Source: a virus
Taxonomy: Duplodnaviria; Caudoviricetes
Virus record (IMG/VR): IMGVR_UViG_3300042319_001750
Coordinates: 1 to 56,444 of that record
Reading direction: 5' to 3' (one strand)
Length of the DNA stretch: 56,444 nucleotides
The notes beneath the pieces were generated by a model. That model saw only the letters and a list, made by a program, of their open reading frames with translations, was not told the origin of the DNA and made no database searches. Made by a program: the position numbers and the translations under genes. The stretch's first letter is position 1. The number at the start of each line of letters is the position of its first letter. This document shows positions 5,404-54,304 of this stretch, in pieces.

Positions 5404-6510
5404 ATGACACCGACACCAACACCACCCACACAGATCACCACCCCTGAGTCCGACCGTGCTTTCCGCTTCTCACGGCGGCGTGAAACCCGCAAGCCTGACG
5501 GCACTGTCCGTCAACGTGCTGGCTGCCTCAATCACCTCGCTGTCAAGACGGCCAGTCCCGTTACCTACCTGCTGACCTCCAAGTGCGGCGCACCTACCGC
5601 CTCGTGGCAGTGGAAAGCTGTGGGTGCAGGCTCACGCCACATCATTGAGGTGAACCCCAACTGCGCGACCGTGTTCTTCGCCGAGGCTAAGAACAACTCC
5701 AAGCGGCGCATCGAACTCGTCAAAGCGGTCATCGCTCACGAGTCCTGTCACGGACTCTACACCTCCCGCTCTCCCGACATCCCTCGCGCTTGCCACATCG
5801 TCAAGGTTCCGTTCCGATTGCTCAACCTCTTCGAGGACTGCCGCATCGAACACAAGTATGTGAAGGAGCGCGGGAAGGAGTTCAAGTTCCGCTGGCGTCT
5901 GTTCGACGACAACATGGTCAAGGCTGGCGCAGAAGTCAGCTCCCCGATGACGTGGCTCTACACCATGAAGACTCGTGAGCCTGCCTTGTTCAAGACGCTG
6001 CCCTCCGTCATGGCGGGATTTAAGTGGACAGGCACGGACAGTATGGCGCTACCCTCCGTGGCATACGTCCACCCGCTCAAGCCGATAGAGGGGCGGCTGA
6101 CCTACATCCCTTCCCTCATCAACGTCTTTTACAGAGCGATCATCGACGCCGCCACCACTGAGGATTTGATCCCCCTCGCCCGCTACTGGACGGACATCTT
6201 TGGTAAGGAGTCCGCCTCTGACCTCCCGCCCATCATCGTTGACACGGTGTCGTCAGATATTGGAGGTGTCCCCGAACCTGCTGGAGTTGATTCGGGGGAG
6301 TCGTCCGACGCTGATCGAACGACCCGCGAGGTTGACCACCGAGCTCTCGAAGAACACGGCGGCGGCGACCCCACTGACAAGCGGGCGATGCTGACCCCCG
6401 ACAAGGTGATGCACCACAACACTGACAAGTTCGTGAAGCAGCTTCCACGCGCTGGCTTCATCCCCCTCCTCCGCTACTGCGTTGGATTTGACAGCGACAC
6501 TTCCGTCTAA
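5404..6510 (+). CDS. HExxH metallopeptidase-like protein (CobT N-terminal-like partner of MoxR/vWA)
   Basis: IAHESCHGLY and LLNLFEDCRIE motifs. Confidence 0.75.
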   Translation: MTPTPTPPTQITTPESDRAFRFSRRRETRKPDGTVRQRAGCLNHLAVKTASPVTYLLTSKCGAPTASWQWKAVGAGSRHIIEVNPNCATVFFAEAKNNSKRRIELVKAVIAHESCHGLYTSRSPDIPRACHIVKVPFRLLNLFEDCRIEHKYVKERGKEFKFRWRLFDDNMVKAGAEVSSPMTWLYTMKTREPALFKTLPSVMAGFKWTGTDSMALPSVAYVHPLKPIEGRLTYIPSLINVFYRAIIDAATTEDLIPLARYWTDIFGKESASDLPPIIVDTVSSDIGGVPEPAGVDSGESSDADRTTREVDHRALEEHGGGDPTDKRAMLTPDKVMHHNTDKFVKQLPRAGFIPLLRYCVGFDSDTSV

Positions 6511-9837: not shown

Positions 9838-10449
9838 ATGACGACGCCACGACTGACCGACGCAACCCGAACGAACATGGCTACCACCCTTCGCCAGTGG
9901 GGTATTGAGAACACCCACCGTGAGGTCTTTGATGCTCTCCATGAGGAGGCGGTAGAGGCGGTTGACACTGCCTGCCAAGACTATGCCATCGGGTATGACG
10001 ACCTTGATCCCGACGATCGGGAGTTTCTGATCCTCGCCTACAAGGATGGGTTCTGGGAGCCGACCCATAAGCTGGAGCGTGACGAGCTCAAAGCTCATGT
10101 TGAGGGGCTATCCGCCCGCCTGTCTGACATGATCTTCTCCGCTCCGGCGGCTCCTGACGGGCGCTTCCCTGAGATGTTTGTGCCGCGAGTCCCCACGCTC
10201 AGCACCAGCCACATGACAAGGGAAGATGCTGACAGGCTACACCACCACTACCAACCTTCGGCAATGCTCAGTTCATCTGACGGAGCCCTCCTGCATATCC
10301 ACAACTGTTCCGACCCTGAAGAGGAGTATGCTGAGTTCAGTGAGGCGTTCCGCAACATCATCCTACGGCTGGTCGAAGCTGGTTACAGCTACGTTAGATT
10401 TGACAGTTGCCACGAGCCTATTGCATCCTTCCCCACCTTTGACTGGTGA
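9838..10449 (+). CDS. protein with DUF5983-like C-terminal domain
   Basis: LSTSHMT...GYSYVRFD...FPTFDW pattern, recalled and not searched. Confidence 0.55.
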   Translation: MTTPRLTDATRTNMATTLRQWGIENTHREVFDALHEEAVEAVDTACQDYAIGYDDLDPDDREFLILAYKDGFWEPTHKLERDELKAHVEGLSARLSDMIFSAPAAPDGRFPEMFVPRVPTLSTSHMTREDADRLHHHYQPSAMLSSSDGALLHIHNCSDPEEEYAEFSEAFRNIILRLVEAGYSYVRFDSCHEPIASFPTFDW

Positions 10450-10481
10450 TAGCCAGCCCACACCCCACACCCCACCAAACA

Positions 10482-10706
10482 ATGAACACCGACAACACCA
10501 CCGAGAATACTGAAGTCACCCCCAAGATCGAACGACGCGGCGGGCACCGCTCACTCCCAGATAAGGATAAACTTGCCAAGGTCAGCCACGTTGCCCGCAT
10601 CCTGCGCAGCGGTTACGGCATGGAGATTGCCTGCAAGCGAGCAGGGACAAGCTCCAACACCATCCGCAAATGGGCACGAGAACTCGGCGTCAAATTTGAC
10701 CACTGA
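10482..10706 (+). CDS. small HTH DNA-binding protein
   Basis: GYGMEIACKRAGTSSNTIRKWARE helix-turn-helix pattern. Confidence 0.7.
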   Translation: MNTDNTTENTEVTPKIERRGGHRSLPDKDKLAKVSHVARILRSGYGMEIACKRAGTSSNTIRKWARELGVKFDH

Positions 10707-10841
10707 TGTTATGAGAACCTTACTCCACTTCACTCGATCCCGATGTCGCTACTGGTGGCGCAAGCTCGTCGCCTCCCTTGACTGGTGCCCCTTATGCGGG
10801 GCCACCCTCAACCACACCCGCTCACATAAACTCTGCCCACG

Positions 10842-11375
10842 ATGCAACTTCCGAACAACCCGATAACCCGACTAAACCCTGAAGTCCTTCCTCGCGATTG
10901 GTCAACCTTGACCGGCGCTGACGGACTCGTCTATCAAGCCGATGTCGCTGTCTCCAAGGCGTCAACTCTCCGCGCGAAGGTGCTCCTGTTCAAAGACCTG
11001 CCTCACCTTCACGGCTTTTGGAAGACCGCTCTCGACCGCCCAACTCCTCACCCCGATACCCTAGCCTTGTGCAATCCGCTGACAACGACGGTCTACTTCT
11101 GCAAGGTAAAGGGCAGGCCGCAGCGTCCTCCCGAAGTGCGCGTTGACCCGCGCTACTTCTGTGTCCTCGGCTTCGCTCAAGGACACCTGACCCCCGAATA
11201 CATCGTCCACGAATCCATCCACGCAGGGTTTGCTTACAGCCGCCGAGTGCGCGGCGGCCATCGCTGGCTTGACGATGACGTTGAGGGGGAGGAGCGCATC
11301 TGTTACCCAGCCGGACGTGTCGCCGACGCCATCATTAGACGATTCCACAAGGGAGGTTTTTTCCATGCCAAGTGA
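10842..11375 (+). CDS. HExxH-containing hypothetical protein
   Basis: IVHESIHAG and downstream EER. Confidence 0.6.
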   Translation: MQLPNNPITRLNPEVLPRDWSTLTGADGLVYQADVAVSKASTLRAKVLLFKDLPHLHGFWKTALDRPTPHPDTLALCNPLTTTVYFCKVKGRPQRPPEVRVDPRYFCVLGFAQGHLTPEYIVHESIHAGFAYSRRVRGGHRWLDDDVEGEERICYPAGRVADAIIRRFHKGGFFHAK

Positions 11376-12455: not shown

Positions 12456-12626
12456 ATGACACCAACACCACTCACGAACTACCTCATCAAAGACAACGAC
12501 GTATCCCGCCCGCAGGCACCAATGATCCTCGGAGTCTGTGACCACGACGGTTGCCCACGGCACCGCTGCAAACAAAAACCACCCTTCTACGCAGCAATCC
12601 TCAACAAGAAAAAGAAACGCAAATGA
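12456..12626 (+). CDS. hypothetical small basic protein
   Basis: ATG after AC-rich leader. Confidence 0.45.
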   Translation: MTPTPLTNYLIKDNDVSRPQAPMILGVCDHDGCPRHRCKQKPPFYAAILNKKKKRK

Positions 12627-12687
12627 ACCAAGAACAAAAACGAATCGCCATCATCTACACCCTAACCAATGGGAAACTTGTTACCCC

Positions 12688-13038
12688 ATGACCGACACCG
12701 AACACCTACAACGAATCAAAGCCAAATGCCAAGAACTCCTAGCTATTGCTGAAAAGCGAACTGCAGGAAGGTGGAAGTGTGGGTCAGATACAGTTTGGGA
12801 CTGGGATGGTAACGAAAAAGTTGCTGACTGTGACGGTTGGAACCCTGACTTCATCGCAGCCTGCGCGGGTGCCGCCGAAGCGGGCTGGCTCTCGACCATC
12901 GCAGCGATTGACGACTGCTTAAACGTGGATTCATCGCTTCCTATTTATATTCAGAATATCACAACTGAAATGATGCTTACCGCTAATGCTCGATTAGTTG
13001 CCGCAATCATTGCCGCATGGCCAGAGGAAATTCTATGA
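12688..13038 (+). CDS. Ead/Ea22-like phage protein (tentative)
   Basis: AEKRTAGRW...DFIAAC pattern. Confidence 0.5.
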   Translation: MTDTEHLQRIKAKCQELLAIAEKRTAGRWKCGSDTVWDWDGNEKVADCDGWNPDFIAACAGAAEAGWLSTIAAIDDCLNVDSSLPIYIQNITTEMMLTANARLVAAIIAAWPEEIL

Positions 13039-13514
13039 CACTAACACCACGAACAGACGCAATCTTAGCCGACGACACAGGCGACAGTTCATTGATCCGC
13101 AATCTTGCGACACTCGCCCGCACCCTCGAACGCGAGCTTAATGCCGCGAAGGCAAAGAGTGAGCTATGCCAGTGTTCCTTGGCAACCCGACTCGTCGGAG
13201 ACGGATGCGAGAGATGCAACCCAGAAAAGGCACGGGAGATCAAAGAGCAGAATTATGAGGATAGAATCAGCGATCTTGAACGTGAACTCAACGACGCAAA
13301 CGAGCAGCTACATAAAGTCCGCATCCGTTGCTCCGAGTGGGCAGATGTAGCTGGCAAGCGCGGCGCAGAAATGGATGTCTTGCTGGCGGCTTTGGAATCA
13401 ATGGTGGCAGCAAACGGCGGTGTAGCTGTAATGCCGACAATAGAAGCCCGTAACCAAAATGCAGCGTTGATGAAAGCTAACGCAGCAATCGCCAAAGCGA
13501 AAGGAAAACCATGA
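13035..13514 (+). CDS. coiled-coil phage protein (TPRTD...LERELN family)
   Basis: ATGA overlaps on both sides. Confidence 0.7.
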   Translation: MTLTPRTDAILADDTGDSSLIRNLATLARTLERELNAAKAKSELCQCSLATRLVGDGCERCNPEKAREIKEQNYEDRISDLERELNDANEQLHKVRIRCSEWADVAGKRGAEMDVLLAALESMVAANGGVAVMPTIEARNQNAALMKANAAIAKAKGKP

Positions 13515-13795
13515 ACGCACCAACACCCGAAACTAAATATGCTCTATCTGTAATATTAGAAGAACACGGCGAACTCTGCGAAGAAACCGCGCCCTTCATT
13601 TTAGTTAGACTTTGTAAAAAACTTGAACACGACATCACCGAACTCAACCTCCGCCTGATCGACCGCCAGCAGACGCTGATGGAACAAGCCGTCAAACTCC
13701 AAGCAGCATCCCGCCTCCTCACTCGTTGCCGCGATTCAGCGGGCCGAGTTGAGATGGGTTTGTATGAGGACATCCAAAACTTTTTGAATAGCTAA
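13511..13795 (+). CDS. hypothetical coiled-coil protein
   Basis: ATGA overlap. Confidence 0.65.
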   Translation: MNAPTPETKYALSVILEEHGELCEETAPFILVRLCKKLEHDITELNLRLIDRQQTLMEQAVKLQAASRLLTRCRDSAGRVEMGLYEDIQNFLNS

Positions 13796-13797
13796 CT

Positions 13798-14025
13798 ATG
13801 ATCGACTCTCCAATATGTGTGACACACCACCTTGCCTGTGACTGTCGCGAGGCACTGATGGCGGAAGCTATGCAGACTCAACGCCGAGTGATCGACTGGC
13901 GGGATCAGAGCGATGAGGGGTTGAGGCTCCGTTGCGGAGAACTGACCTCGCAGGAAATCCGAACGATCCGCGCTGTGCTGACCGCAATTCTTCCGCCGAA
14001 CATTCAAACTGAGACACAGCCATGA
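13798..14025 (+). CDS. hypothetical protein ending inside attC-like site A
   Basis: ORF; CVTHHLACDCRE motif. Confidence 0.65.
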   Translation: MIDSPICVTHHLACDCREALMAEAMQTQRRVIDWRDQSDEGLRLRCGELTSQEIRTIRAVLTAILPPNIQTETQP

Positions 14026-14121
14026 GAAAATGCACCGCCCCATCCCCATTCTGTGAATGCCAAAAATGTTTTGATGCCAAGCAAGGTGCCGTGGCTGTTG
14101 TCTCCAGTGCCCTTGTTCGGC
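13995..14121 (-). mobile_element. attC-like site A
   Basis: GCCGAAC-ATTCAA-ACTGAGACACAGCCA ... TGGCTG(T)TGTCT(C)CAGT-GCCCTT-GTTCGGC: R boxes, unpaired spacer, two extrahelical bases. Confidence 0.75.
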
Positions 14122-14267
14122 TTGCTCCGCCGCATGAGTGCCCTGCGTGTAAGCGCACAGGGTTCTACGAGAAACCGAAAAGGAACTGCTATTACTGCCC
14201 CCACTGCTGGAATCTGTTTGGAGAGATATATGGAGACCCGAAACAAAAGATCAGGCTCGCACAATGA
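14022..14267 (+). CDS. Cys-rich zinc-ribbon-like cassette protein
   Basis: CECQKC, CPAC and CPHC motifs; starts inside site A. Confidence 0.55.
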   Translation: MRKCTAPSPFCECQKCFDAKQGAVAVVSSALVRLAPPHECPACKRTGFYEKPKRNCYYCPHCWNLFGEIYGDPKQKIRLAQ

Positions 14268-14268
14268 A

Positions 14269-14399
14269 GCCGAGCCGTCCCTGCTCTGGCACAGAGCGGG
14301 GGAGAGAAAACTAAACCGAAGGAATCAAATCTATGAATGAAGAAAACGTAAATGATGCCATAGCGCCCCGCTCTGTTGACCAGCAGCGCCTTGTTCGGA
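14269..14399 (-). mobile_element. attC-like site B
   Basis: GCCGAGC..GCTCTGGCACAGAGCGGGG ... CCCCGCTCTG(T)TG(A)CCAG(C)AGC-GCCTT-GTTCGGA. Confidence 0.65.
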
Positions 14400-14674
14400 C
14401 TCATTGGATTACCGCTCTAAGAGGATACGCCGAACCAGATCCTCCCTACCGATCCCGCTTTAACTTCGTGTGGTGGTTCTGGCTACCGAGACTCCACACG
14501 CAACGTCCCGACGCCATGAACCCGCGAGTAATCCGGCTCATCTGGCTATGCTTCGCTGTGGGGCTGGACATCTGGGGCAAGGAGTCGCGGATGTATTGGC
14601 CGAACAAGCCTGCTCTGGCAGCAAGCCCGGCTAAAAACTCAACCGAAGCGAAAGACTCACAAAATGGAAACTGA
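14333..14674 (+). CDS. Trp-rich cassette protein
   Basis: Starts in the loop of site B and ends in the loop of site C. Confidence 0.55.
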   Translation: MNEENVNDAIAPRSVDQQRLVRTHWITALRGYAEPDPPYRSRFNFVWWFWLPRLHTQRPDAMNPRVIRLIWLCFAVGLDIWGKESRMYWPNKPALAASPAKNSTEAKDSQNGN

Positions 14675-14725
14675 GTCGATACTCCAAAACGCTGGCGCAG
14701 CTTGCCAGCAGCAGGCTTGTTCGGC
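14599..14725 (-). mobile_element. attC-like site C
   Basis: GCCGAACAAGCCTGCTCTGGCAG ... CT(T)GCCAG(C)AGCAGGCTTGTTCGGC. Confidence 0.75.
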
Positions 14726-14990
14726 CTTGCCGTGGCTGAAACGTCCATCTGACTTGGGTATGTGGTGGGCATTCTGGGAGGGCAAATACTCGCTTTGGCA
14801 GGTCATCAAAATCCCGGCTGGCTGGATGGCGATGAATGAAGAAATCGGGAACAGTATGGTGGGCTGGATCAACTCCGCCAATCTCGAAATCTGCGAGCTG
14901 CAAAACTCCATTTGGTTCCCGGCGCTCGGAGGTTGGCCGAACGATAAGGCTCAGCAAAATGAAATAAAAACTCGCTTGCACATTTTCTAG
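14664..14990 (+). CDS. Trp-rich cassette protein
   Basis: Starts in the loop of site C and runs through half-site D. Confidence 0.55.
   Translation: METESILQNAGAACQQQACSALPWLKRPSDLGMWWAFWEGKYSLWQVIKIPAGWMAMNEEIGNSMVGWINSANLEICELQNSIWFPALGGWPNDKAQQNEIKTRLHIF
14936..14955 (-). mobile_element. attC-like half-site D
   Basis: GCCGAACGATAAGGCTCAGC, read on the minus strand as GCTGAGCCTTATC-GTTCGGC; no partner arm found. Confidence 0.45.
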
Positions 14991-15003
14991 CCTATCATAT
15001 AAA
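14976..15003 (+). promoter_or_regulatory. sigma70-like promoter for the tRNA
   Basis: TTGCAC-16-TATAAA with A-rich upstream sequence. Confidence 0.5.
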
Positions 15004-15017
15004 ACCACATTCCCAAA

Positions 15018-15093
15018 GGCAGGGTAGCTCAGAGGCCAGAGCGTCGGGCTCATAACCCGAAAGTCGGAAGTTCAAATCTTCCCCCTGCCACCA
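15018..15093 (+). tRNA. tRNA with CAT anticodon (Met, fMet or Ile2)
   Basis: Acceptor stem GGCAGGG/CCCTGCC, D arm GCTC/GAGC, anticodon arm TCGGG-CTCATAA-CCCGA, T arm GGAAG-TTCAAAT-CTTCC, encoded CCA. Confidence 0.95.
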
Positions 15094-15280
15094 ACTCAAC
15101 AGCCACAACATGACCACAGCACACATCATCCATCAGGTTCATCCGCTCGATCTCGCGGCCGACATCGTTATAGCTGCCAACCGGCTTCTCTTTGAATCTC
15201 ACATCCCTCACTGGTTCCGTGCCCACACCACCGACACGCATATCCATCTCACCCTGCAACCCGACAACCCACCCACCCCC

Positions 15281-15553
15281 ATGACCGTAATCGAAGTGCC
15301 CATTGACGACATCGTCCTCGACAAAGAACTCCGCCGCGACATTGACTCACAGATTCAGCGTCTTAAATCCTCCGCTCCAAGCCGCGAACGCAGCCTCGCT
15401 ATCACGAAGCTACAAGAGGCGGTGATGTGGCTCGGTATGGACCTCAAGCGCATCAATGAGGAGACCCCCGGCTCCTCACCGAATCCCTATCCAAACTCCA
15501 AGGACCCGAGCAACTTGAAGATCGAGCCCACTGCGGACGGACTCAAACTATAA
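15281..15553 (+). CDS. Acb2/Tad1-hairpin-like protein, candidate nucleotide sponge (in-frame upstream start at 15110 possible)
   Basis: SRERSLAITKLQEAVMW motif. Confidence 0.5.
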   Translation: MTVIEVPIDDIVLDKELRRDIDSQIQRLKSSAPSRERSLAITKLQEAVMWLGMDLKRINEETPGSSPNPYPNSKDPSNLKIEPTADGLKL

Positions 15554-15567
15554 ACCACGGCACACCC

Positions 15568-15765
15568 ATGGACATCGAGATAACCAACTACGTCACCCTG
15601 CCACAAGTCTTGACGGCGTATCGCAAGCAGTGGTCGTGCGATGAGATAGTCGAAGACATTATTGCGTTCATCTGTGACCAGCCAGACCAGCAGTTTGAAA
15701 ACAAACTCTTCGCCGCGTTGCAAAAATTCAAAGCCGAGAACGACCCGCCCGAACCTTCACCCTAA
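15568..15765 (+). CDS. hypothetical acidic protein
   Basis: ORF. Confidence 0.55.
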   Translation: MDIEITNYVTLPQVLTAYRKQWSCDEIVEDIIAFICDQPDQQFENKLFAALQKFKAENDPPEPSP

Positions 15766-16021
15766 CCCTGCACTATGGCCCGAAACACCTTCTCCTATTG
15801 GAGGCGCGTCCCCCACATGCAATGCCCCCTCGTCGTCAACCGAGGCTTGCCGTCCGAGTGTCGGCTTGTTGCTCGCAGCGACCTCGTCTTCATTTACCAC
15901 TATACAAGACTTGACCACCCGAACAGGGCGGTTAAAAAGAATCTCCCCCAAACAGGAGCCGCTCATTTTGAGCAACCGCGCCGGACGTATTCCGGCACAC
16001 CCCCAAGAAAACGAAACCACC

Positions 16022-16126
16022 ATGGCTAAGAAAGCTACTCCCGCCCCAATGAAAGCTGCCCCAAAAAAAGGCGCAGCAGTCCCCGCCAAGAAAGGCGCTG
16101 CTGCGCCGATGAAGAAGGGTTGCTAA
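16022..16126 (+). CDS. 34-aa Lys/Ala/Pro histone-H1-like peptide
   Basis: MAKKATPAPMKAAPKKGAAVPAKKGAAAPMKKGC; AC-rich leader; terminator follows. Confidence 0.6.
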   Translation: MAKKATPAPMKAAPKKGAAVPAKKGAAAPMKKGC

Positions 16127-16136
16127 TCAACCCAAC

Positions 16137-16179
16137 AACAGCCCCTGCTGCTTAAACGTGGCAGGGGCTGTTTTGTTTT
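16137..16179 (+). terminator. intrinsic terminator between convergent blocks
   Basis: AACAGCCCCTGC...GCAGGGGCTGTT followed by a T-rich tail. Confidence 0.85.
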
Positions 16180-16852
16180 ATCGCAGGAGCGCCAGCACTT
16201 TGACGTGCTTGGAATATTTACCGCAGGGCATTGGGAATACATTTCGCGTCATGTGCCCATACCCAGCCTCAGCTATCAGCGCCGCCAGCCCTTCCTCACT
16301 GTGAACCGTGGTGTTATTGTCGGCGTGCTCATAGAGAAACTTGTTTTGGGCCGCCTTCTCCTCCGGCGTATTAGCCAGCTTTTCTTTAGCTAAGGCAAAT
16401 TCAGTTTCACTTACATTGACCGTCATCAATACTTTTGTGTCTGCTGAAATAACTGTCTTGAGGTTGGTTAGGAACAGCTTTAGCTGCGAGGCGCTGCAGT
16501 GAATGAACAGGTCGCTGGCCAAGACGTGAGTGAATCCCCCTTTAAGTGGAGTGAAATCAAACACAGGTGTGTAGAGGAACACAGGGTTCTTTTCTGCTAC
16601 GAGGCCCTGAGCCAGTTCATGGACGACCCCCGCATGCAGGACGCTGACACAAGGCTCCACACCCGTGTAACAGTTCTTGTTCAGGAGGTCAATAAGAGGT
16701 GCCCCAATTCGGAGGCACCCACACCCCACGTCTAAAACTCTGGACGCAGGATTCATCCCGCAGCTACGGAGGGTGTGGATTAAAAAGTCTCGGCCCTTTT
16801 CCCAAGCCCCCGTTGGGCAAATGTGTTGTCTGTGATTTAGCGTCTCGCTCAT
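16178..16852 (-). CDS. class I SAM-dependent methyltransferase
   Basis: VLDVGCGCLRIG, YTGVE and SDLFIH motifs. Confidence 0.8.
   Translation of the reverse strand: MSETLNHRQHICPTGAWEKGRDFLIHTLRSCGMNPASRVLDVGCGCLRIGAPLIDLLNKNCYTGVEPCVSVLHAGVVHELAQGLVAEKNPVFLYTPVFDFTPLKGGFTHVLASDLFIHCSASQLKLFLTNLKTVISADTKVLMTVNVSETEFALAKEKLANTPEEKAAQNKFLYEHADNNTTVHSEEGLAALIAEAGYGHMTRNVFPMPCGKYSKHVKVLALLR

Positions 16853-19423: not shown

Positions 19424-19427
<4 letters not shown>
18840..19427 (-). CDS. Cys-rich zinc-binding protein
   Basis: CATC, CSSC and CSQCGC motifs; ATGA-coupled to the giant gene. Confidence 0.7.
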
Positions 19428-33037
<13,610 letters not shown>

Positions 33038-37097: not shown

Positions 37098-37312
37098 TTG
37101 AGGAAGAGGAACTGTTCAGTAGAGGTTGACAAGCCACCCACAGACCCTGCACCAAGGACGCGGAACATCCCGAAGGCCGTGTCAATCTGCTGTTCGACCG
37201 TCGTCTTCACCGCCTGAAACTGCATGTCGCCCCCAAGCTCACCGTTCAAAATCTCAAGGAGGGAGGGCTGCTGGGGTTCAGGGGTTGGAGCCTCGTCAGG
37301 ATCGGGGGTCAT
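37094..37312 (-). CDS. hypothetical small protein
   Basis: ATGA-coupled. Confidence 0.55.
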   Translation of the reverse strand: MTPDPDEAPTPEPQQPSLLEILNGELGGDMQFQAVKTTVEQQIDTAFGMFRVLGAGSVGGLSTSTEQFLFLK

Positions 37313-40300
37313 GGTTTGAAGATTGCAACTCGATTACGGTCAGCTACCAACAGGTCTCCGCCCTGCCACGTCAACCCAGCGGCGCTATTCAACGTCGTTT
37401 CTGAGCGTGTCAGAACAGAGTTGGTGGTGAAGTTAGGCTGACCTAATACAGCATGAGGTTGACTGCCGTTAGCTGGAGCCGTGTAAAAGATAAGCACGCG
37501 GCGATTGTTGGTGTCGCTGACGGCAAGTTGACCGACAGCATTCATAGACAGTCCACTTGGGCCATTGCACCAGTCTCGAGTGGCTCCAGTGAAGCTAGTA
37601 GATAGGTCTGTCTGGAACAAGATAATGTCCGGGGGAACCCCGGAAGTAGGGACGGACCCATAACCAAGGACGCGGTTAAAATACGCGTCCGCGATGTAGA
37701 GTTTGCCGTCTACTGGGCTGACACACGCTGCTGAAGGGGCCCTAAACCTCGGGAGAGAGAGTGAGCCCGCGGGTGTATAAGAGGGGCCCGTGGGTAAGAG
37801 GGCAACGCTCAAACTCGTCTGACCTAAGGCGAGGTTGGCGGCGGCATTACTGGCTGCGGGAAAACTGTTCCAAATGAGAACGCGATAATTACCCGGGTCA
37901 GTAGCGATGAGCTTCCCCGCTTGCGACCCAGAAGGAACTACAAAAATGTCAGTGATTCCCTTAAATTTAGTCGGAGAGGCTCCCGGCAAGCCTGAGGTGA
38001 AATTAACCTGCCCAAGCACCATATCTGCGGCTTGATTGTTAGTGGCCGGGTTGTTCCAAATAAGGATGCGGTTACGCACGGTGTCAGACACTAAGAGCTT
38101 CTCACCATACCACGCCACCGCTTTTGGGAGCCGAAGGTTTGATTGCGTAATAGCGACGCTATCCGAATAACTCGTCAAGTTGGGTTGACCGAGGACGAGG
38201 TCAGCCGCCTGACCCGTGGCGAGGGCTGGGTAGCTGTTCCAAATGAGAACACGGTTGGCGACTGTGTCAGCGATAGCAACCCTCCCGCTGGAACTGACGG
38301 CGGGGCGAGAGCCCAATGAGGTGCTGAGCTGAGCTGCGGAAGGAGCACCTACCCAAGTTGTATCGGCTGAACTAGATGTCTGCCCGAGGATCAAAGAAGC
38401 CGAACTGGAAGTTGGGAGGCTGCCGGAATTGTAAGAGAACCCGAGAAGGGGCACCTCGAAAGGATTTTCGTCATGGTCGTTACTCGCGATGTTGAGCTTC
38501 GCTTCGAGTGGTCCAACAGTGGTCCCCGGTGTCAACGTCACGTCAACGAAAGCACTCTGACCCGGCTCAAGCCGGGTGACAACTGTCGTGCTGTCGGCAA
38601 GAACGACGTTGGTGACGAAGAACTTTGCCGCGTCAGTGCCTGTGAGAGTGGCCGCTAAGCCAGTGAGGTCAGCATTTCCGACGTTGCGAACCCAGAATCG
38701 TTTAGTGCGGGAAGTCCCCGTCAACATAGACCCGTAAGTAGAAACGCCGGTGTTGTCGGTCAAGATGCTCCCTAAAGGGCTCTCTACCTGAATCTCATGC
38801 TCCGTGCCACCGGTGCCGGTGAGGTTGATGACGTAAGTCGGCTGGTTAGGGTCACTGCTGGCGACCGTCAACACAGCGGATTTCAAGCCGGATGTAGTCG
38901 GGGTGAACCCAATGGTCAAATTTGCAGTGCCCCCCGAAACTACGGAGGTGACGAACGACCCAACCGAAAACTGCGCTGCGTCGGTGCCGGAGAGTGTTGC
39001 AGCCAACGAGCTTAGTGTTCCAGCGCCGCGGTTGACGACCCCGAAGGTTGCCTGCTTGAGAACCGTTGCGGCGGAAAACCCGAAATAATACGAGGCCCCC
39101 GGAGACAGGTCTGCTCCAGATGGCGCAGTCACGTCAATCAGGCCGACGGCGACACCCGTGGCGCTGAGGGTCAGGAGGTAAGGGTCTTCCGCTCCAGTGG
39201 GGTCATTGTTGTTGATCGACACCGACAGCGTTTTTGCCCCGGCTTCGGTGGGAGTAAAGCTGACACTGAAGGTTCCTGTGGCTCCGGCTGCGATTGGGGC
39301 TTCGGGAGAGCTAAGTAAGTCCCAAGGAGGAGGGCTCGAAGAATCGGAGATACCTACCACAGCAGTCAACGCCCCATTTCCAGTGTTGAGGATACTGAAC
39401 GAGAATGTGCCGACGGACCCAGTGTTGACGTTGCCCAAGGCAACAGTGCTGCCGCCAGAAGGCCGCGACACTCCGGCGTAGAGCACGTCAATTTCAGGCT
39501 GCACGGCCGTCCCAGTCAGCGTCACCAGATACGACGGGATATTGACGGCGTTGGACGTGATCGTCATACTCACACTGATGGCCCCGACCGCAGCCGTAGG
39601 ACGCATTTTAACGAGAACGGTCGCATATCCGCCCGGGGCTACGGATGTAGGTAGCGTCCCAACTACCGAGAAGTAGGACCGGTATCCACCCTCAAATACG
39701 ACGGCGATTCCCGACAGGCTGAGCAGCCCATCGTTGCGGATAATGATTGTCTTGAAGGTGTCCTCAGTTGTTTGGGCTTGGCCAAAGTCGATGACACCCG
39801 TTACAGCGGGCAGCGGCACATCATCAATGGTATTGACGAGTCCGTCAGGACCGGGTGTGGAGAGTGCGATTTCTGCCTGCGGCGGGCACATCACTACAGC
39901 AATGTTTGACTCTCTCACCACCGTGGTAGCGCCAGTCGTCCGAGTCACGGTCAACCTACTATAGTAAGGCACCCCACGCGAAGCCCCTGTGACGGTCTTG
40001 GTTGCTAGCCCGAGGACGCTGAAGTCTTTGAAACCCGGCAGAAAACCAGTTTTGAATGTGGGGTCTGAAGAGACGTCCAATTTCAGAGCTGTCGTGTAGG
40101 CCAAATTTCCCCAGTTGAGTTGGAAAGATGTGGCAAAAGTGGTGCCTACAGTAAGATAAAGCTCAGGAGCTACACCTGCTTGTGAGGGGCAGTTGACGAG
40201 CATAACACGCTTGAGCCACCCGCCTTGGTGAGCTCGAAGGTCTACCTCGGCCACAATGCTCCCGGGCCAGCGAGTGTAGTTCGTGGCTGGGAATTCCTGC

Positions 40301-41574
40301 TGGAAATTGGCTGCGTAGAAGGTGATGTAATCATGCAGGCATTCCTGCACGCTGACGTCAAGCAGGGGGCTGTTGAAGGAGATAGCCTTAGGCAGCAGTG
40401 GCGTTGGCTCAGGCAGGAGAGGGCTGGTGGCTTTAGTGCTGTTCCATGTTGGGTCTCCGCCAACTACAGGAAGGGCAGAAGTCCACTCTTCAATGATCGT
40501 CGCGAGACACGGGCCGGAGTAGGCGTCTGCGACGAATCTAGGGGAGGTGACATACCCTGTGACCGCCGAGTAGATGTCGGAGTTATCGGCGTAGACTGGC
40601 GTGATGTTGACGTAGTCTAGGACAGCAGGCCAAGCCCAGTTGGTGACGATTTGGAAAGTGCGGGTTGCCTTGCCGTTGATAGCAGAGCCAGCGAGACCAG
40701 CAGCTTTCTTGGTATTCTTGATTGACCACAGAGTATTGATGGGCTGCAACTCCACGATAGACCCGTCAGACTGAATGCCAGAGGGGATCGTCGTATTGGC
40801 GGGAACCTTAGCACGCCGGAAAGAAGTTGTGGCGTTGATCTCAGGGTCAAACTCTTTGCCGATGATTTCAGAGTCAACATAACGAACTGCCACGGCGTCA
40901 AAAGTCCCTGTAGCAAAAGCGGCTACAGCTGTGTATGCCGTAGCCGGGGGGCTAAAATTACTGACCCGGACACCCGGAGGTAGGTATGTGGCAGGGCACT
41001 CAATGTAATCGTTGATGGCCAACAAAGTTCCTAGGGTGCTGAGCGCCGTCACGTTCGCAATAGTGCCGATACTGAGGGATGCAATGACTTGGCGGACGCG
41101 CAGTTTTTCCCGAGTGACCGCTACCATGACAAAAGTTGATGCGAGCACTTCATCGTTGATAGGACGCTCTTCAACCCCAGTCACAGTCCACTCAAGCGGG
41201 TAGGCTAAGACTTCGACCGGGGGCATGTCATAAGTTGACGTCACCGAAAAGTCAGACCGACGAACGATAAAAGTCTGGGTAAGCTGGGGCCAGTCAGGAG
41301 TGTCCGTCAGCTGCCAGTTGTAGCGATGCTGATTCTCCCGGTTGGCGGAGTAATACCACCGTTGCCATCCAGCGCCCCCTTCAGCGGTCACAAACACCAA
41401 CTCATGGTGAGGGAACTTTGCAGTGTCCGGGTGAGGGTCTCCATAGCTCCACGACTTGTTTTTGGGCAAGTCTCCGTCCCGGATTTCATAGAAGAGCAGG
41501 TCGGCCTGCCCCTCAGGAGTCGGGAAAGAAAGAACGGGAATGCGTTCTGGGATGTCGGGCTTCGGGCGGATCAT
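37309..41574 (-). CDS. tail fibre/adhesin with four Ig-like (ASH / choice-of-anchor D-like) domains and C-terminal NHL-like beta-propeller
   Basis: Repeated I.N.G...L and F.PT...S.D motifs; repeated AD...NRVLIWN...ADLVLGQ.NFT. Confidence 0.7.
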   Translation of the reverse strand: MIRPKPDIPERIPVLSFPTPEGQADLLFYEIRDGDLPKNKSWSYGDPHPDTAKFPHHELVFVTAEGGAGWQRWYYSANRENQHRYNWQLTDTPDWPQLTQTFIVRRSDFSVTSTYDMPPVEVLAYPLEWTVTGVEERPINDEVLASTFVMVAVTREKLRVRQVIASLSIGTIANVTALSTLGTLLAINDYIECPATYLPPGVRVSNFSPPATAYTAVAAFATGTFDAVAVRYVDSEIIGKEFDPEINATTSFRRAKVPANTTIPSGIQSDGSIVELQPINTLWSIKNTKKAAGLAGSAINGKATRTFQIVTNWAWPAVLDYVNITPVYADNSDIYSAVTGYVTSPRFVADAYSGPCLATIIEEWTSALPVVGGDPTWNSTKATSPLLPEPTPLLPKAISFNSPLLDVSVQECLHDYITFYAANFQQEFPATNYTRWPGSIVAEVDLRAHQGGWLKRVMLVNCPSQAGVAPELYLTVGTTFATSFQLNWGNLAYTTALKLDVSSDPTFKTGFLPGFKDFSVLGLATKTVTGASRGVPYYSRLTVTRTTGATTVVRESNIAVVMCPPQAEIALSTPGPDGLVNTIDDVPLPAVTGVIDFGQAQTTEDTFKTIIIRNDGLLSLSGIAVVFEGGYRSYFSVVGTLPTSVAPGGYATVLVKMRPTAAVGAISVSMTITSNAVNIPSYLVTLTGTAVQPEIDVLYAGVSRPSGGSTVALGNVNTGSVGTFSFSILNTGNGALTAVVGISDSSSPPPWDLLSSPEAPIAAGATGTFSVSFTPTEAGAKTLSVSINNNDPTGAEDPYLLTLSATGVAVGLIDVTAPSGADLSPGASYYFGFSAATVLKQATFGVVNRGAGTLSSLAATLSGTDAAQFSVGSFVTSVVSGGTANLTIGFTPTTSGLKSAVLTVASSDPNQPTYVINLTGTGGTEHEIQVESPLGSILTDNTGVSTYGSMLTGTSRTKRFWVRNVGNADLTGLAATLTGTDAAKFFVTNVVLADSTTVVTRLEPGQSAFVDVTLTPGTTVGPLEAKLNIASNDHDENPFEVPLLGFSYNSGSLPTSSSASLILGQTSSSADTTWVGAPSAAQLSTSLGSRPAVSSSGRVAIADTVANRVLIWNSYPALATGQAADLVLGQPNLTSYSDSVAITQSNLRLPKAVAWYGEKLLVSDTVRNRILIWNNPATNNQAADMVLGQVNFTSGLPGASPTKFKGITDIFVVPSGSQAGKLIATDPGNYRVLIWNSFPAASNAAANLALGQTSLSVALLPTGPSYTPAGSLSLPRFRAPSAACVSPVDGKLYIADAYFNRVLGYGSVPTSGVPPDIILFQTDLSTSFTGATRDWCNGPSGLSMNAVGQLAVSDTNNRRVLIFYTAPANGSQPHAVLGQPNFTTNSVLTRSETTLNSAAGLTWQGGDLLVADRNRVAIFKP

Positions 41575-52917: not shown

Positions 52918-52942
52918 AGTTGTTGTTTTTTACGACTCTGCC

Positions 52943-52971
52943 ACATTACTGCATGACCAAAACCAAGTCAA
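52943..52971 (-). promoter_or_regulatory. sigma70-like late-operon promoter overlapping the recombinase start
   Basis: TTGACT-17-TAATGT, about 25 nt upstream of the terL ATG. Confidence 0.6.
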
Positions 52972-53825
52972 CCAAACCAAAAACCGCCACCTCGACAGTT
53001 CAGGCATATCTGAAAAGTCATAGATTTGAGGGGCTCTCCATCCACCACATCCGCACGGTGCGCAAGCACATGGGCATTTTCGTGAAATACTTCAAGGAAG
53101 CGCCGCTGGAAGAAGTCACTCCAGAGGAAGTGCTCTGCTCCATGCCCAAAAACTGGGGGCAGACCTCGAAGGCCAACTACATTCGAGCGGTTAAGACTCT
53201 CGCTAATTGGGCGCGGGATAATGACTACCTACCTTACGACCGCCGCACATTTGCCGAGCGTATCAGGAAGCCGAAGGAGGTTCCATTGGAGCCAGAGTTC
53301 TTCACGACTGAAGAAATGCGCCGACTACTGACTGTGGCGGGTATGTTGGTTGGGGGAGAAGAAGAGTTTCTGTTGTCCCTGATTATCCTTGGGGGTTTCG
53401 CTGGACTACGCTCCAGCGAGATCGGACGTTTGCGGTGGGTAGACATCGACCTCCCTCACAAAGCCGTGAGGTTGACGCCGAAGATCACAAAGACATCGTC
53501 TCGTCGTATTGCACTGCTCCCTGACAACGGGGCTGCGTGGCTGGAACACATCAAGGATAAGTCGGGGTTCGTTGTTCCCCAACACCTTATCCCAAATTTG
53601 AACCGCTACATCGGCACACTCGCCAAAGAAGCTGGTGTGGAGTGGAAGAACAATGCCCTCCGCCATTCATACGTCACCTATGCCATGGCACAGGAGCGCG
53701 ATGCGTGGAAAGTAGCCGAGCAAGTGGGCAACTCACCCCGTGTTTTGCAAGCCCATTACAAAGGGCTTGTGCTCCTCCCAGACGCAGTTGAGTGGTTTGG
53801 TATCACCCCTGACAACACCCTATGA
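52953..53825 (+). CDS. tyrosine recombinase (core-binding plus catalytic domains)
   Basis: GLRSSE (R), TKT (K), NALRHS, VGNSP, AHY (Y). Confidence 0.9.
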   Translation: MTKTKSTKPKTATSTVQAYLKSHRFEGLSIHHIRTVRKHMGIFVKYFKEAPLEEVTPEEVLCSMPKNWGQTSKANYIRAVKTLANWARDNDYLPYDRRTFAERIRKPKEVPLEPEFFTTEEMRRLLTVAGMLVGGEEEFLLSLIILGGFAGLRSSEIGRLRWVDIDLPHKAVRLTPKITKTSSRRIALLPDNGAAWLEHIKDKSGFVVPQHLIPNLNRYIGTLAKEAGVEWKNNALRHSYVTYAMAQERDAWKVAEQVGNSPRVLQAHYKGLVLLPDAVEWFGITPDNTL

Positions 53826-54304
53826 AGACCATCATCGCAGTAGACCCCGGCCTTAGCGGCGGAATCGTAATCGGAGACAAGGACGAGGTAGCTCCTCACG
53901 CAGTCACTTCTATGCCTGACACTGAAGCGGATGTCGTAGAACTTCTGCGGGAGGCCGTGAACTCCAACTATGACAGGGGTTCTCTTGCCCTCGTCATTGA
54001 GAAGCTGCCCCTCTTCGTCTCCGTCCCCGGAGGCCGCGTCAGCGGAGCCAGCATGGCAAAACTCCACCGCAATGCGGGGCTCTTGACGGGCGCTGCATTA
54101 GCTCTGTCAATCCGCATCGTCGAAGTTGACCCCCATTCATGGCAGAAACATTTCCGCCTCGGCACCAAAGCCTCTGCCGGTGGATACACCGCTTGGAAGA
54201 ACGTGCTCAAGGGGGAGGCGCAGAAGCGTTTCCCGACCGTCAAAGTCACTCACGCAATCGCAGACTCACTCCTGATTTGGGAGTTCGCAAAAACCCTAAA
54301 ATGA
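53822..54304 (+). CDS. RuvC-like Holliday junction resolvase
   Basis: IIAVDPG, VIEK, WQK, IADSLLI. Confidence 0.8.
   Translation: MKTIIAVDPGLSGGIVIGDKDEVAPHAVTSMPDTEADVVELLREAVNSNYDRGSLALVIEKLPLFVSVPGGRVSGASMAKLHRNAGLLTGAALALSIRIVEVDPHSWQKHFRLGTKASAGGYTAWKNVLKGEAQKRFPTVKVTHAIADSLLIWEFAKTLK

Follow-up and report, generated by a model that had tools for sequence, protein, structure and literature searches.

What are the three hairpins that punctuate a run of very small genes in the virus record IMGVR_UViG_3300042319_001750 (Duplodnaviria; Caudoviricetes), and do they mark the boundaries of mobile units? The window analyzed here is the whole IMG/VR virus record, a linear stretch of 56,444 bp with a CheckV completeness of 85%. 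Three imperfect inverted repeats of 127, 131 and 127 bp (sites A, B and C) are found on the plus strand within 13995-14942, and a sequence-only reading had interpreted them as attC-like sites of an integron cassette array, oriented antisense to the genes. The sites are probably of attC type, and the array one of integron cassettes. Three sites reside in 731 bp, and no intI gene is found in the record; as clusters of attC sites lacking integron integrases (CALINs) are defined by the presence of at least two predicted attC sites in the text of Qi et al. 2023 (PMC9892861, section 3.4), the array is a CALIN.

Site A (13995-14121), in which the plus strand corresponds to the bottom strand of an attC, is bounded by GCCGAAC and GTTCGGC (R' box at 13995-14001, R'' box at 14115-14121), and features a 5x5 unpaired spacer and a bulged C and a bulged T on the right arm; the crossover would fall between 14000 and 14001. 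Site B (14269-14399, plus strand) runs from GCCGAGC to GTTCGGA, with a degenerate R' box (AGC for AAC) and an R'' box at 14393-14399, an unpaired spacer of about 4-7 nt, and bulged C, A and T residues on the right arm. Site C (14599-14725, plus strand) is bounded by GCCGAAC and GTTCGGC (R' box at 14599-14605, R'' box at 14719-14725), and has no unpaired spacer, its base being a perfect 17-nt inverted repeat; the bulges of the right arm are C, T and C, a distance of six base pairs separating C from T. The right arms of A, B and C carry 2, 3 and 3 bulged nucleotides, the left arms 0, 0 and 1. The loops of the three sites (about 48-66 nt) are unrelated in sequence to each other. A lone R' box, GCCGAAC, is found on the plus strand at 14936-14942, where ORF C reads it as Pro-Asn, and corresponds in integron terms to the intI/attI-proximal end of the array; the lone copy at 14934-14942 is TGGCCGAAC.

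The array exceeds chance expectation. The pattern CCGARC-N(100-128)-GTTCGG is matched five times (the three sites, two of which are read also on the minus strand), the mean number of matches in shuffled sequences being 0.62, and none of 100 shuffles reaches five. A scanner based on the alignment of the arms, which requires AAC...GTT, at least three of four outer box pairs and an aligned stem, retrieved exactly sites A, B and C from the 56,444-bp record, and none from the reversed control. The 9-mer CTTGTTCGG, one mismatch allowed, is not enriched window-wide (21 matches vs. 16.2 expected), and its four exact copies all reside in the array. Folded as single-stranded DNA, as the sequence-only reading had suggested, the plus strands of A, B and C reach -26.6, -19.8 and -38.0 kcal/mol, respectively (z = -4.3, -1.6 and -6.5), energy alone not singling out site B. 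The three inverted repeats, their boxes and the lone arm were recovered at all the coordinates, and with all the features, attributed to them earlier; so were the two to three bulged bases per site on one arm and the unpaired spacer of A and B.

According to the account of Nivina et al. 2016 (PMC5027507), attC sites feature R boxes with AAC/GTT triplets and, on the bottom strand, extrahelical bases opposite the AAC triplet; the extrahelical base furthest away is a conserved T, the spacer measures 5-6 nt, and the length varies from 57 to 141 bp. The R boxes of the window fit the RYYYAAC...GTTRRRY consensus, A and C departing from it at one position (G at position 4). Extrahelical bases were monitored in a set of 24 sites, from the window and from contigs linked to it by cassette B: 52 bulged nucleotides are found on the right arm and 9 on the left, and the innermost bulge is a T in all sites but three (site C of the window and two sites of contig L013). 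Length and variable loops also fit (127, 131 and 127 bp in the window, 86-153 bp in the linked sites). The stems of the 24 sites are made up by 413 Watson-Crick pairs, 7 G.T pairs, 7 A.C pairs and 17 other mismatches, the sequences varying and the pairing being kept; in contig L011 the arms differ from those of the window on both sides, and still pair with each other, a compensatory change. Alignment of 11 sites by MAFFT and RNAalifold recovered the 6 R-box pairs only, because the stems differ in sequence and in the position of the bulges. As a positive control, the same scanner was run on bacterial loci retrieved with the phage integron integrase (IntI) described below (control loci L071, L084 and L108). 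Arrays of, for example, 12, 12 and 15 sites were found upstream of intI, with bulges on the right arm of the intI strand; their polarity relative to intI is that of the phage sites, and 69 of the 93 sites show a bulged G followed by a bulged T. Boxes, one-sided bulges, variable loops, and the homology breakpoints at the AAC box illustrated in the next paragraph concur in upholding the attC interpretation.

The cassettes would correspond, on the plus strand, to 14001-14274 (cassette A, 274 nt, the interior of site A and ORF A), 14275-14604 (cassette B, 330 nt, the interior of site B and the conserved body of ORF B) and 14605-14941 (cassette C, 337 nt, the interior of site C and ORF C; ORF, open reading frame). 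Protein B has relatives in 14 viral contigs, and none among 185,579 prokaryote species, each represented by one genome (of 145 pattern matches 0 were confirmed). Cassette C has no homologue in the loci that were fetched. In all-against-all blastn comparisons gene B homology breaks off at the GCCGAAC box, give or take a few chance bases, in every pair reaching the box; in all nine pairs involving the window and reaching that end, homology stops at 14601-14610. Cassette B resides in at least eight different neighborhoods, at least eight different continuations being found past the box. On the upstream side the right arm is conserved with gene B, and several contigs also keep the left arm, with compensatory changes, which indicates that a site belongs to the gene located downstream of it.

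Absence of one cassette is seen in G004 (contig L018), the only true relative of the phage, with 10 shared ORFs. Here exactly 14002-14275, cassette A, is missing, and the junction lies at the two left R' boxes. Additional, independent instances are provided by contigs from four lake or freshwater metagenome runs, available as assemblies only. In an X5 contig 14000 is joined to 14276; another X5 contig carries 13995-14273 with 0 differences, and thus a 100% identical cassette A, between other flanks; divergence from the window directly after 14001 is also seen in an X5 contig. Over 14226-14606 an X4 contig matches the window without differences, and it goes on with the cassette seen downstream of B in contig L005. 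In an X6 contig 13968 is bridged to 14953 by 64 other letters, and the whole three-cassette block is absent. The blastn end-points and the joints or ends of contigs (14000/14001, 14273-14276, 14606) place the crossover at AA|C on comparative grounds. Compared, as suggested earlier, for gain or loss of cassettes at the junction, the contigs show breaks at the AAC box, and cassette A is absent in L018; they belong mostly to unrelated phages sharing a cassette only, and not to related ones. G001, G002 and G003 share with the window cassette B and no other ORF, and two of them are complete genomes with direct terminal repeats. When 12500-16500 was compared by blastn to 50,697 deposited phage records, the tRNA only was matched, and hence no close cultured relative is found there.

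Two copies of gene B look like cassettes fixed in place. The copy at 3516-3740 of L014 has lost the features of the site, begins with ATG GTT CG, and stops right after TGG CCG AAC; in L016 the boxes of the copy at 6001-6213 are degenerate, and no site is detectable in the genome to which it belongs, G005. A 21-nt direct repeat including CCGAACGAT is found, with 76% identity, at 13947-13967, in the upstream gene, and at 14925-14945, over the lone box. Divergence of the X6 contig from the window sets in at 13968, directly past the first copy, and the repeat may mark an older junction.

On polarity three independent lines concur: where the bulges are placed, where homology breaks, and where, and on which strand, intI lies in a cassette-sharing phage contig. 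The assignment predicted from them is clear: the attC sites' top strand is the minus strand of the window, and the genes lie on the plus strand, which bears out the antisense orientation proposed earlier. Of 15 phage cassettes, 12 have the longer ORF on the bottom strand, that of intI, vs. 8 of 75 bacterial cassettes; in 67 of the 75 bacterial controls it lies opposite intI, on the top strand. The plus strand, as judged from codon signals, really is the coding strand, because third codon positions are the most variable in gene B (548, 372 and 1340 pairwise differences at positions 1, 2 and 3, respectively), and two plus-strand genes matching Pfam families begin inside sites (DUF1643, E = 2e-46; R2K ATP-grasp, E = 7e-12). 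An R2K ATP-grasp protein is part of the cargo of G003. Bottom-strand cassette ORFs of this sort appear to be new. A coding-strand test based on GC phase failed calibration on bacterial arrays (15 vs. 17) and was dropped; greedy clustering of ORFs was swamped by antisense ORFs.

The plus-strand ORFs at the array encode 75, 81, 113 and 108 aa. The upstream gene (13798-14025, 75 aa), which has an 88%-identical homologue in L018, ends in site A: its last 10 codons form the R'/L' arm, and in the sequence ATGA its stop codon overlaps the first codon of ORF A. ORF A (14022-14267, 81 aa) is Cys-rich; ORF B spans 14333-14674 (113 aa), and ORF C 14664-14990 (108 aa), ending 48 nt beyond the lone R' box. 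As had been noticed, three ATGs (14022, 14333, 14664) and two stops (ending at 14025 and 14674) fall within sites, and the six peptides quoted at the time as encoded by the arms were all found in the translations, so that the arms are translated. The GTTCGG right box is read in the Leu-Val-Arg frame in A and B, and in the Cys-Ser frame in C and L018; the use of two reading frames indicates that what is conserved is the nucleotide sequence, and not a protein motif. Proteins A, B and C show no mutual similarity, and no Pfam family was found for them or for most cassette proteins.

A frame rule was searched for in the 24 full sites, or 25 boxes, of the window and the cassette-B-linked contigs. 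The upstream frame is open for at least 50 codons at 23 of the 25 boxes, and in 21 of these 23 AAC is read as a codon, the exceptions being site B of the window and one site of L013. In bacterial control arrays AAC is read as a codon in 16 of 30 boxes, a 16 to 14 split; the null expectation is at most one half, as TAA closes one frame in GCCTAAC-type boxes. All of the 24 full sites contain a stop in frame 0, 21 also the start codon of an ORF of at least 45 aa, and in 8 stop and start overlap as ATGA or GTGA. The crossover would accordingly be locked in one Asn codon, and any neighbor would provide the upstream ORF with a short tail and a stop beside its own start. Such an arrangement, in which AA|C falls in a fixed Asn codon and the upstream ORF stops in the next site beside the next start, appears to be new.

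No sigma-70-like promoter was found in 12500-16200 (1.6 expected) by a scan for the sigma-70-type consensus only, and no plus-strand terminator-like site in the array itself. The nearest ones downstream are a weak site at 15172-15186 and a strong site at 16137-16172. The lack of promoters and the location of the first strong terminator place the array within a long plus-strand transcription unit.

Which enzyme might move the cassettes? No integron integrase, and no remnant of one, resides beside the array of the window; the best match to the integron-integrase model TIGR02249 reaches 24.9 bits (cut-off 265) and is located 38 kb away, and a tblastn search of the window with a true phage IntI yielded nothing better than E = 0.85. 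Profile and tblastn searches thus confirm the earlier remark that no IntI is present in the window. The match is the sole tyrosine recombinase of the record (52920-53825, plus strand, outside the array), a Xer-like protein (PF00589, 35.8 bits) whose best family is XerA (47.3 bits, cut-off 220), and which falls short of an integron integrase (24.9 vs. 265 bits).

An integron integrase is found in a phage contig carrying the same type of sites. L009 encodes at 9932-10927 (plus strand) a 331-aa protein which scores 290.4 bits with TIGR02249, over the cut-off of 265, and aligns end to end with the VchIntIA structure 2a3v (E = 4.9e-54), the alignment including a segment which is presumably the IntI-specific insertion. 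The gene is located 735 bp past the last of five to six GCCGAAC-box sites, all lying at lower coordinates, a canonical geometry. A large terminase (361 bits) and a major head protein are also encoded by this contig, of which an identical counterpart, L010/G002, was assembled independently. A second IntI-like gene is found in L006; it scores 186.8 bits, under the cut-off, but its best family is still TIGR02249, and it lies 2 kb from cassette B in G001, a complete 58-kb phage with direct terminal repeats. Finally, G003 (the same as L013) is a complete 71.6-kb genome with direct terminal repeats, and carries at least 10 attC-type sites in 8.4 kb (55918-64276), many with canonical GCCTAAC/GTTAGGC boxes. 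The genome encodes no tyrosine recombinase, an indication that arrays can persist without a resident IntI.

Upstream of intI in L009 (9905-9935) a 78-aa ORF ends with TCT AAC ATC TAA. The lone CTCTAAC box found there, 15 nt before the intI start, shares the AAC frame of the other boxes and offers a candidate for the crossover point of attI.

As to the source of the enzyme, the earlier suggestion that the phage makes use of a host integron integrase is not supported as it was worded, since phages sharing the cassette encode an IntI of their own; a host IntI is no likelier than a phage-borne IntI supplied in trans. In IMG/VR, viral contigs with integrases are no rarity: a search based on a 19-sequence alignment detected 221 contigs encoding IntI relatives, some of which may be provirus edges. 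Of these, 80 were kept, and 81 loci were scanned; 14 of the 81 carry at least two sites (58 hits vs. 15 control hits). The AAC-frame rule is followed by 11 of 13 sites in seven IntI-bearing viral contigs; yet the antisense and frame rules were dropped for this set, the contigs having a GC content of 60-67% and long ORFs on both strands.

The bacterial IntIs nearest to the phage IntI are 35-45% identical to it and come from many phyla, and hence no host can be called. Inverted-type integrons, with sites downstream of intI and bulges on the other arm, are found in a Planctomycetia metagenome-assembled genome (L058, 9026-10281) and in a Frigoriglobus one (L050, 9379-10711); the boxes of L058 are GCCGAAC/GTTCGGC as in the phage sites. 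For a host of the Planctomycetes-Verrucomicrobia-Chlamydiae group, at which the sequence-only reading had hinted, the boxes of L058 are the sole indication, and the L058 integron is of the inverted type.

A mechanism can be outlined from these data. The array would be an integrase-less cassette array (CALIN) of a freshwater phage, in which the recombinogenic bottom strand, that is, the plus strand of the window, folds as single-stranded DNA into imperfect hairpins which combine an R box with extrahelical bases facing the AAC triplet, a long variable loop and, in A and B, an unpaired spacer. The cassette unit would consist of C, left arm, loop, right arm, gene body and GCCGAA. The integrase, being encoded outside the record, would have to act in trans on the sites of the window, presumably from a co-infecting phage or from the host; other phages with the same cassette and type of site appear to encode it. 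With genes on the bottom strand, each attC would lie at the 5' end of its own gene, the loop carrying the start codon and the right arm encoding the first 15-25 residues. The crossover would occur within the Asn codon AA|C, in the same frame in almost every cassette, and the upstream ORF would run through the next left arm and stop in the next loop, beside or overlapping the next start, whatever cassette follows. It may be inferred that this arrangement keeps the genes translationally coupled, in any order of the cassettes, within a long plus-strand transcript. The idea that each attC supplies an N-terminus, allowing combinatorial protein assembly, needs revision: the attC leader usually travels and co-varies with the downstream gene, and reshuffling affects the short C-terminal tail which follows the Asn codon. 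One leader swap was seen in L018, the leader of B being joined to an unrelated body at the right box, an event for which bottom-strand exchange does not account. In its widest form the proposal is that a pool of small cassettes circulates among unrelated freshwater phages by means of phage-encoded integrases, with genes on the bottom strand, attC sites providing ribosome entry and start, an Asn-locked crossover, and a chain of coupled ORFs; this is advanced tentatively, doubt slightly outweighing confidence.

Several observations weigh against the integron interpretation, or against parts of it. An IntI-like gene was found in only 3 of the 11 cassette-B records examined, none in the window (85% complete), none in the only true relative, G004 (71% complete), none flanking the array, and G003 has no tyrosine recombinase at all. 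The sites deviate from the canon in that the boxes are one position off RYYYAAC/GTTRRRY (G at position 4), the first extrahelical base is usually C where G is the canon, and site C is without an unpaired spacer (17 perfect pairs, vs. a 5x5 spacer in A and one of about 4-7 nt in B). The left triplet of site B is AGC instead of the conserved AAC, and the fold energy of this site, taken alone, is not significant when compared to shuffles (z = -1.6). The change to AGC looks like a local mutation, since the homologous site of L018 has AAC, and the match of the X5 contig to cassette A ends just before the changed base. Searched against Rfam at E <= 10, the tRNA locus only was matched, and none of the sites, though Rfam may hold no attC model. 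The breakpoint of L018 at the right (R'') box is not predicted by exchange restricted to the bottom strand, and translational coupling is argued from geometry. Finally, the comparative evidence comes throughout from contigs of metagenome assemblies; chimeras are an unlikely source of the junctions, because the shared boxes are much shorter than assembly words.

Could the hairpins be RNA instead? The promoter/stem-loop cassettes (PeSLs) of T4-type phages are intergenic promoter-plus-terminator units which recombine by homology, and the hairpins of the window might similarly be elements of phage mRNA, processing or coupling stems whose ends serve as microhomology, no integrase being involved. 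Several features suit RNA: transcription runs through the sites in the same sense as through the genes, the loops accommodate stops and starts, IntI is lacking in the window, and one breakpoint lies at the R'' box. An RNA stem, however, would tolerate G.U on one strand only, and wobble in the 24 sites is rare and strand-symmetric (7 G.T vs. 7 A.C in 444 stem positions). Bulges are one-sided with attC-like spacing, the boxes are those of attC sites (in G003 even GCCTAAC/GTTAGGC), and a true IntI lies beside an array of this kind in L009, in canonical geometry; as no promoter and no in-array terminator were found, the sites are not promoter-terminator units. An RNA nature of the hairpins is, all in all, very unlikely.

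That the hairpins are folded DNA acted upon by a different recombinase is quite unlikely too. Candidates are the Xer-like protein encoded at 52920-53825, a host XerCD, or an HUH enzyme. The attP hairpin of the CTX phage offers a precedent, as XerCD recombines there a folded single strand, at one site, for the integration of the whole genome at dif; the window encodes a Xer/XerA-type recombinase (47.3 bits with the XerA model), the boxes are one position off the attC consensus, and the first bulged base is not the canonical one. The Xer-like gene, however, lies 38 kb from the array, and of five cassette-B records searched for its relatives one yielded a weak relative, the other four none. The 10 sites of G003 reside in a genome without tyrosine recombinases, the sole recombinase found beside an array passes the integron-integrase cut-off, and no HUH-type gene was seen, though no search was aimed at HUH genes. 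A still simpler account, according to which the repeats are protein motifs (LVR..., ...WPN) shared by paralogous small proteins, or chance similarities, takes advantage of the translation of the arms and of the recurrence of the motifs at protein termini. It can be regarded as refuted, and is given next to no probability, by the reading of the right box in two frames and by the compensatory changes, the arms being complementary to each other and co-varying between homologous sites; moreover, the pattern count is above that of all 100 shuffles, and proteins A, B and C are dissimilar.

Taking the sites as attC sites, the array can be compared to known systems. Phage-borne attC arrays are already a known kind. 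Integrons or parts of them were reported in 21 phages, 17 CALINs among them, in the text of Qi et al. 2023 (PMC9892861); five of six attC sites of virulent phages that were assayed recombined with IntI1, at the junction G|TTRRRY. The few complete integrons described there correspond to pieces of chromosomal integrons of Vibrio, a mosaic of class 1 carried by a P1 phage, and a prophage of Shewanella. The array of the window resembles the phage CALINs of that report as a cluster of attC sites with accessory cargo, found without an integrase in a phage genome. Unlike them, and within what its text describes (a bacterial-type or divergent orientation), the ORFs of the window lie on the bottom strand, with starts in the sites and a fixed junction frame; the integrase linked to such sites is divergent (at most 45% identical to bacterial IntIs), and the phages are uncultivated freshwater ones. 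Canonical chromosomal integrons, in the description of Nivina et al. 2016 (PMC5027507), share with the window the R boxes, the predicted AA|C crossover, the extrahelical bases with a terminal T, the long loop and, for A and B, an unpaired spacer. Phage L009 and the bacterial controls likewise agree in having intI at the attI end, with the gene on the bottom strand. In contrast, the first bulge is C, not G, the box GCCGAAC, not GCCTAAC, and the sites lie within coding sequence.

Sharing of the same DNA by attC structure and reading frame is a feature of the synthetic coding attC sites presented in Nivina et al. 2020 (PMC7439510); unlike those engineered sites, as the text of that paper depicts them, the overlap in the window is natural and systematic, and the crossover would fall in a fixed codon. 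A coupling of translation to the next gene across a recombination junction is ascribed to ORF-11/attI1 of class 1 integrons in the portion of PMC8876359 dealing with it. ORF-11 concerns attI only, the top strand and the first cassette (PMC8876359), whereas in the window coupling would occur at every attC junction, on the bottom strand. Like the PeSLs of T4-type phages, described in parts of PMC2839356 and PMC4122927 as repeated stem-loop motifs which flank small accessory genes in plastic parts of phage genomes, with genes gained and lost at the motifs, the sites flank small genes; unlike PeSLs, they show no promoter or terminator motif, form part of coding sequence, and are linked to an integron integrase. 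With the attP hairpin of CTX the sites would share the use of folded single-stranded phage DNA as substrate of a tyrosine recombinase, but they form an array of cassette boundaries, and the boxes are different. In the literature searched nothing was found on antisense or frame-locked phage cassettes with starts in attC loops, the supplementary tables of Qi et al. 2023 lying outside this search.

The same recombination chemistry seems to operate here under an expression logic suited to phages, made up by reversed reading, a long operon, and junctions standardized at the codon level. Integrons are usually viewed as bacterial devices, with cassettes expressed from one top-strand promoter, and the reports of attC clusters in phages are recent, and depict them as carrying ordinary cassettes. 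If the proposal is correct, the gene-by-gene mosaicism of phage accessory regions would have a concrete mechanism in place of illegitimate recombination, and attC sites could naturally coexist with coding sequence. Engineered coding attC sites would then have a counterpart in nature, one that would serve as a plug-and-play standard for accessory, possibly anti-defense, genes. A cassette pool exchanged between unrelated phages, beside a gene of an anti-defense family, could also be mined for counter-defense genes.

The sequences flanking the array at higher coordinates of the plus strand include a tRNA-Met (CAT; 15018-15093), located 76 nt past the lone R' box; the depth of contigs in metagenomes is very high at this tRNA. 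Next is a gene (15110-15553, plus strand) for a 147-aa protein with the Acb2/Tad1 hairpin domain (PF24729, 33.3 bits, cut-off 27), a family annotated as anti-defense sponges of defense signaling nucleotides, which suggests that the region is an anti-defense or accessory island.

Different scans were tried before the arm-alignment scanner was adopted for the searches. A strict-box scan was too narrow, and a constrained-fold scan based on pair counting unspecific (2-5 control hits per genome). At threshold 9 the arm-alignment scanner gave 21 hits vs. 0 control hits, and 20 vs. 10 when AGC was allowed (six records). A model made from 62 bacterial attC sites was dropped, as nearly all of them belong to one Xanthomonadales-type sequence family, and the model would have tested sequence rather than structure.

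Most large proteins of the phage match no Pfam family. An ORF of 4,537 aa is found on the minus strand at 19424-33037; a second one on this strand (37309-41574, 1,421 aa) features Ig-like domains of the HYDIN/ASH/Cep192 type and an NHL repeat. On the plus strand, 9838-10449 encodes a protein with a C-terminal DUF5983 domain, and 54139-56442 a helicase (ResIII/Helicase_C) fused to DUF2800, which runs off the end of the record.

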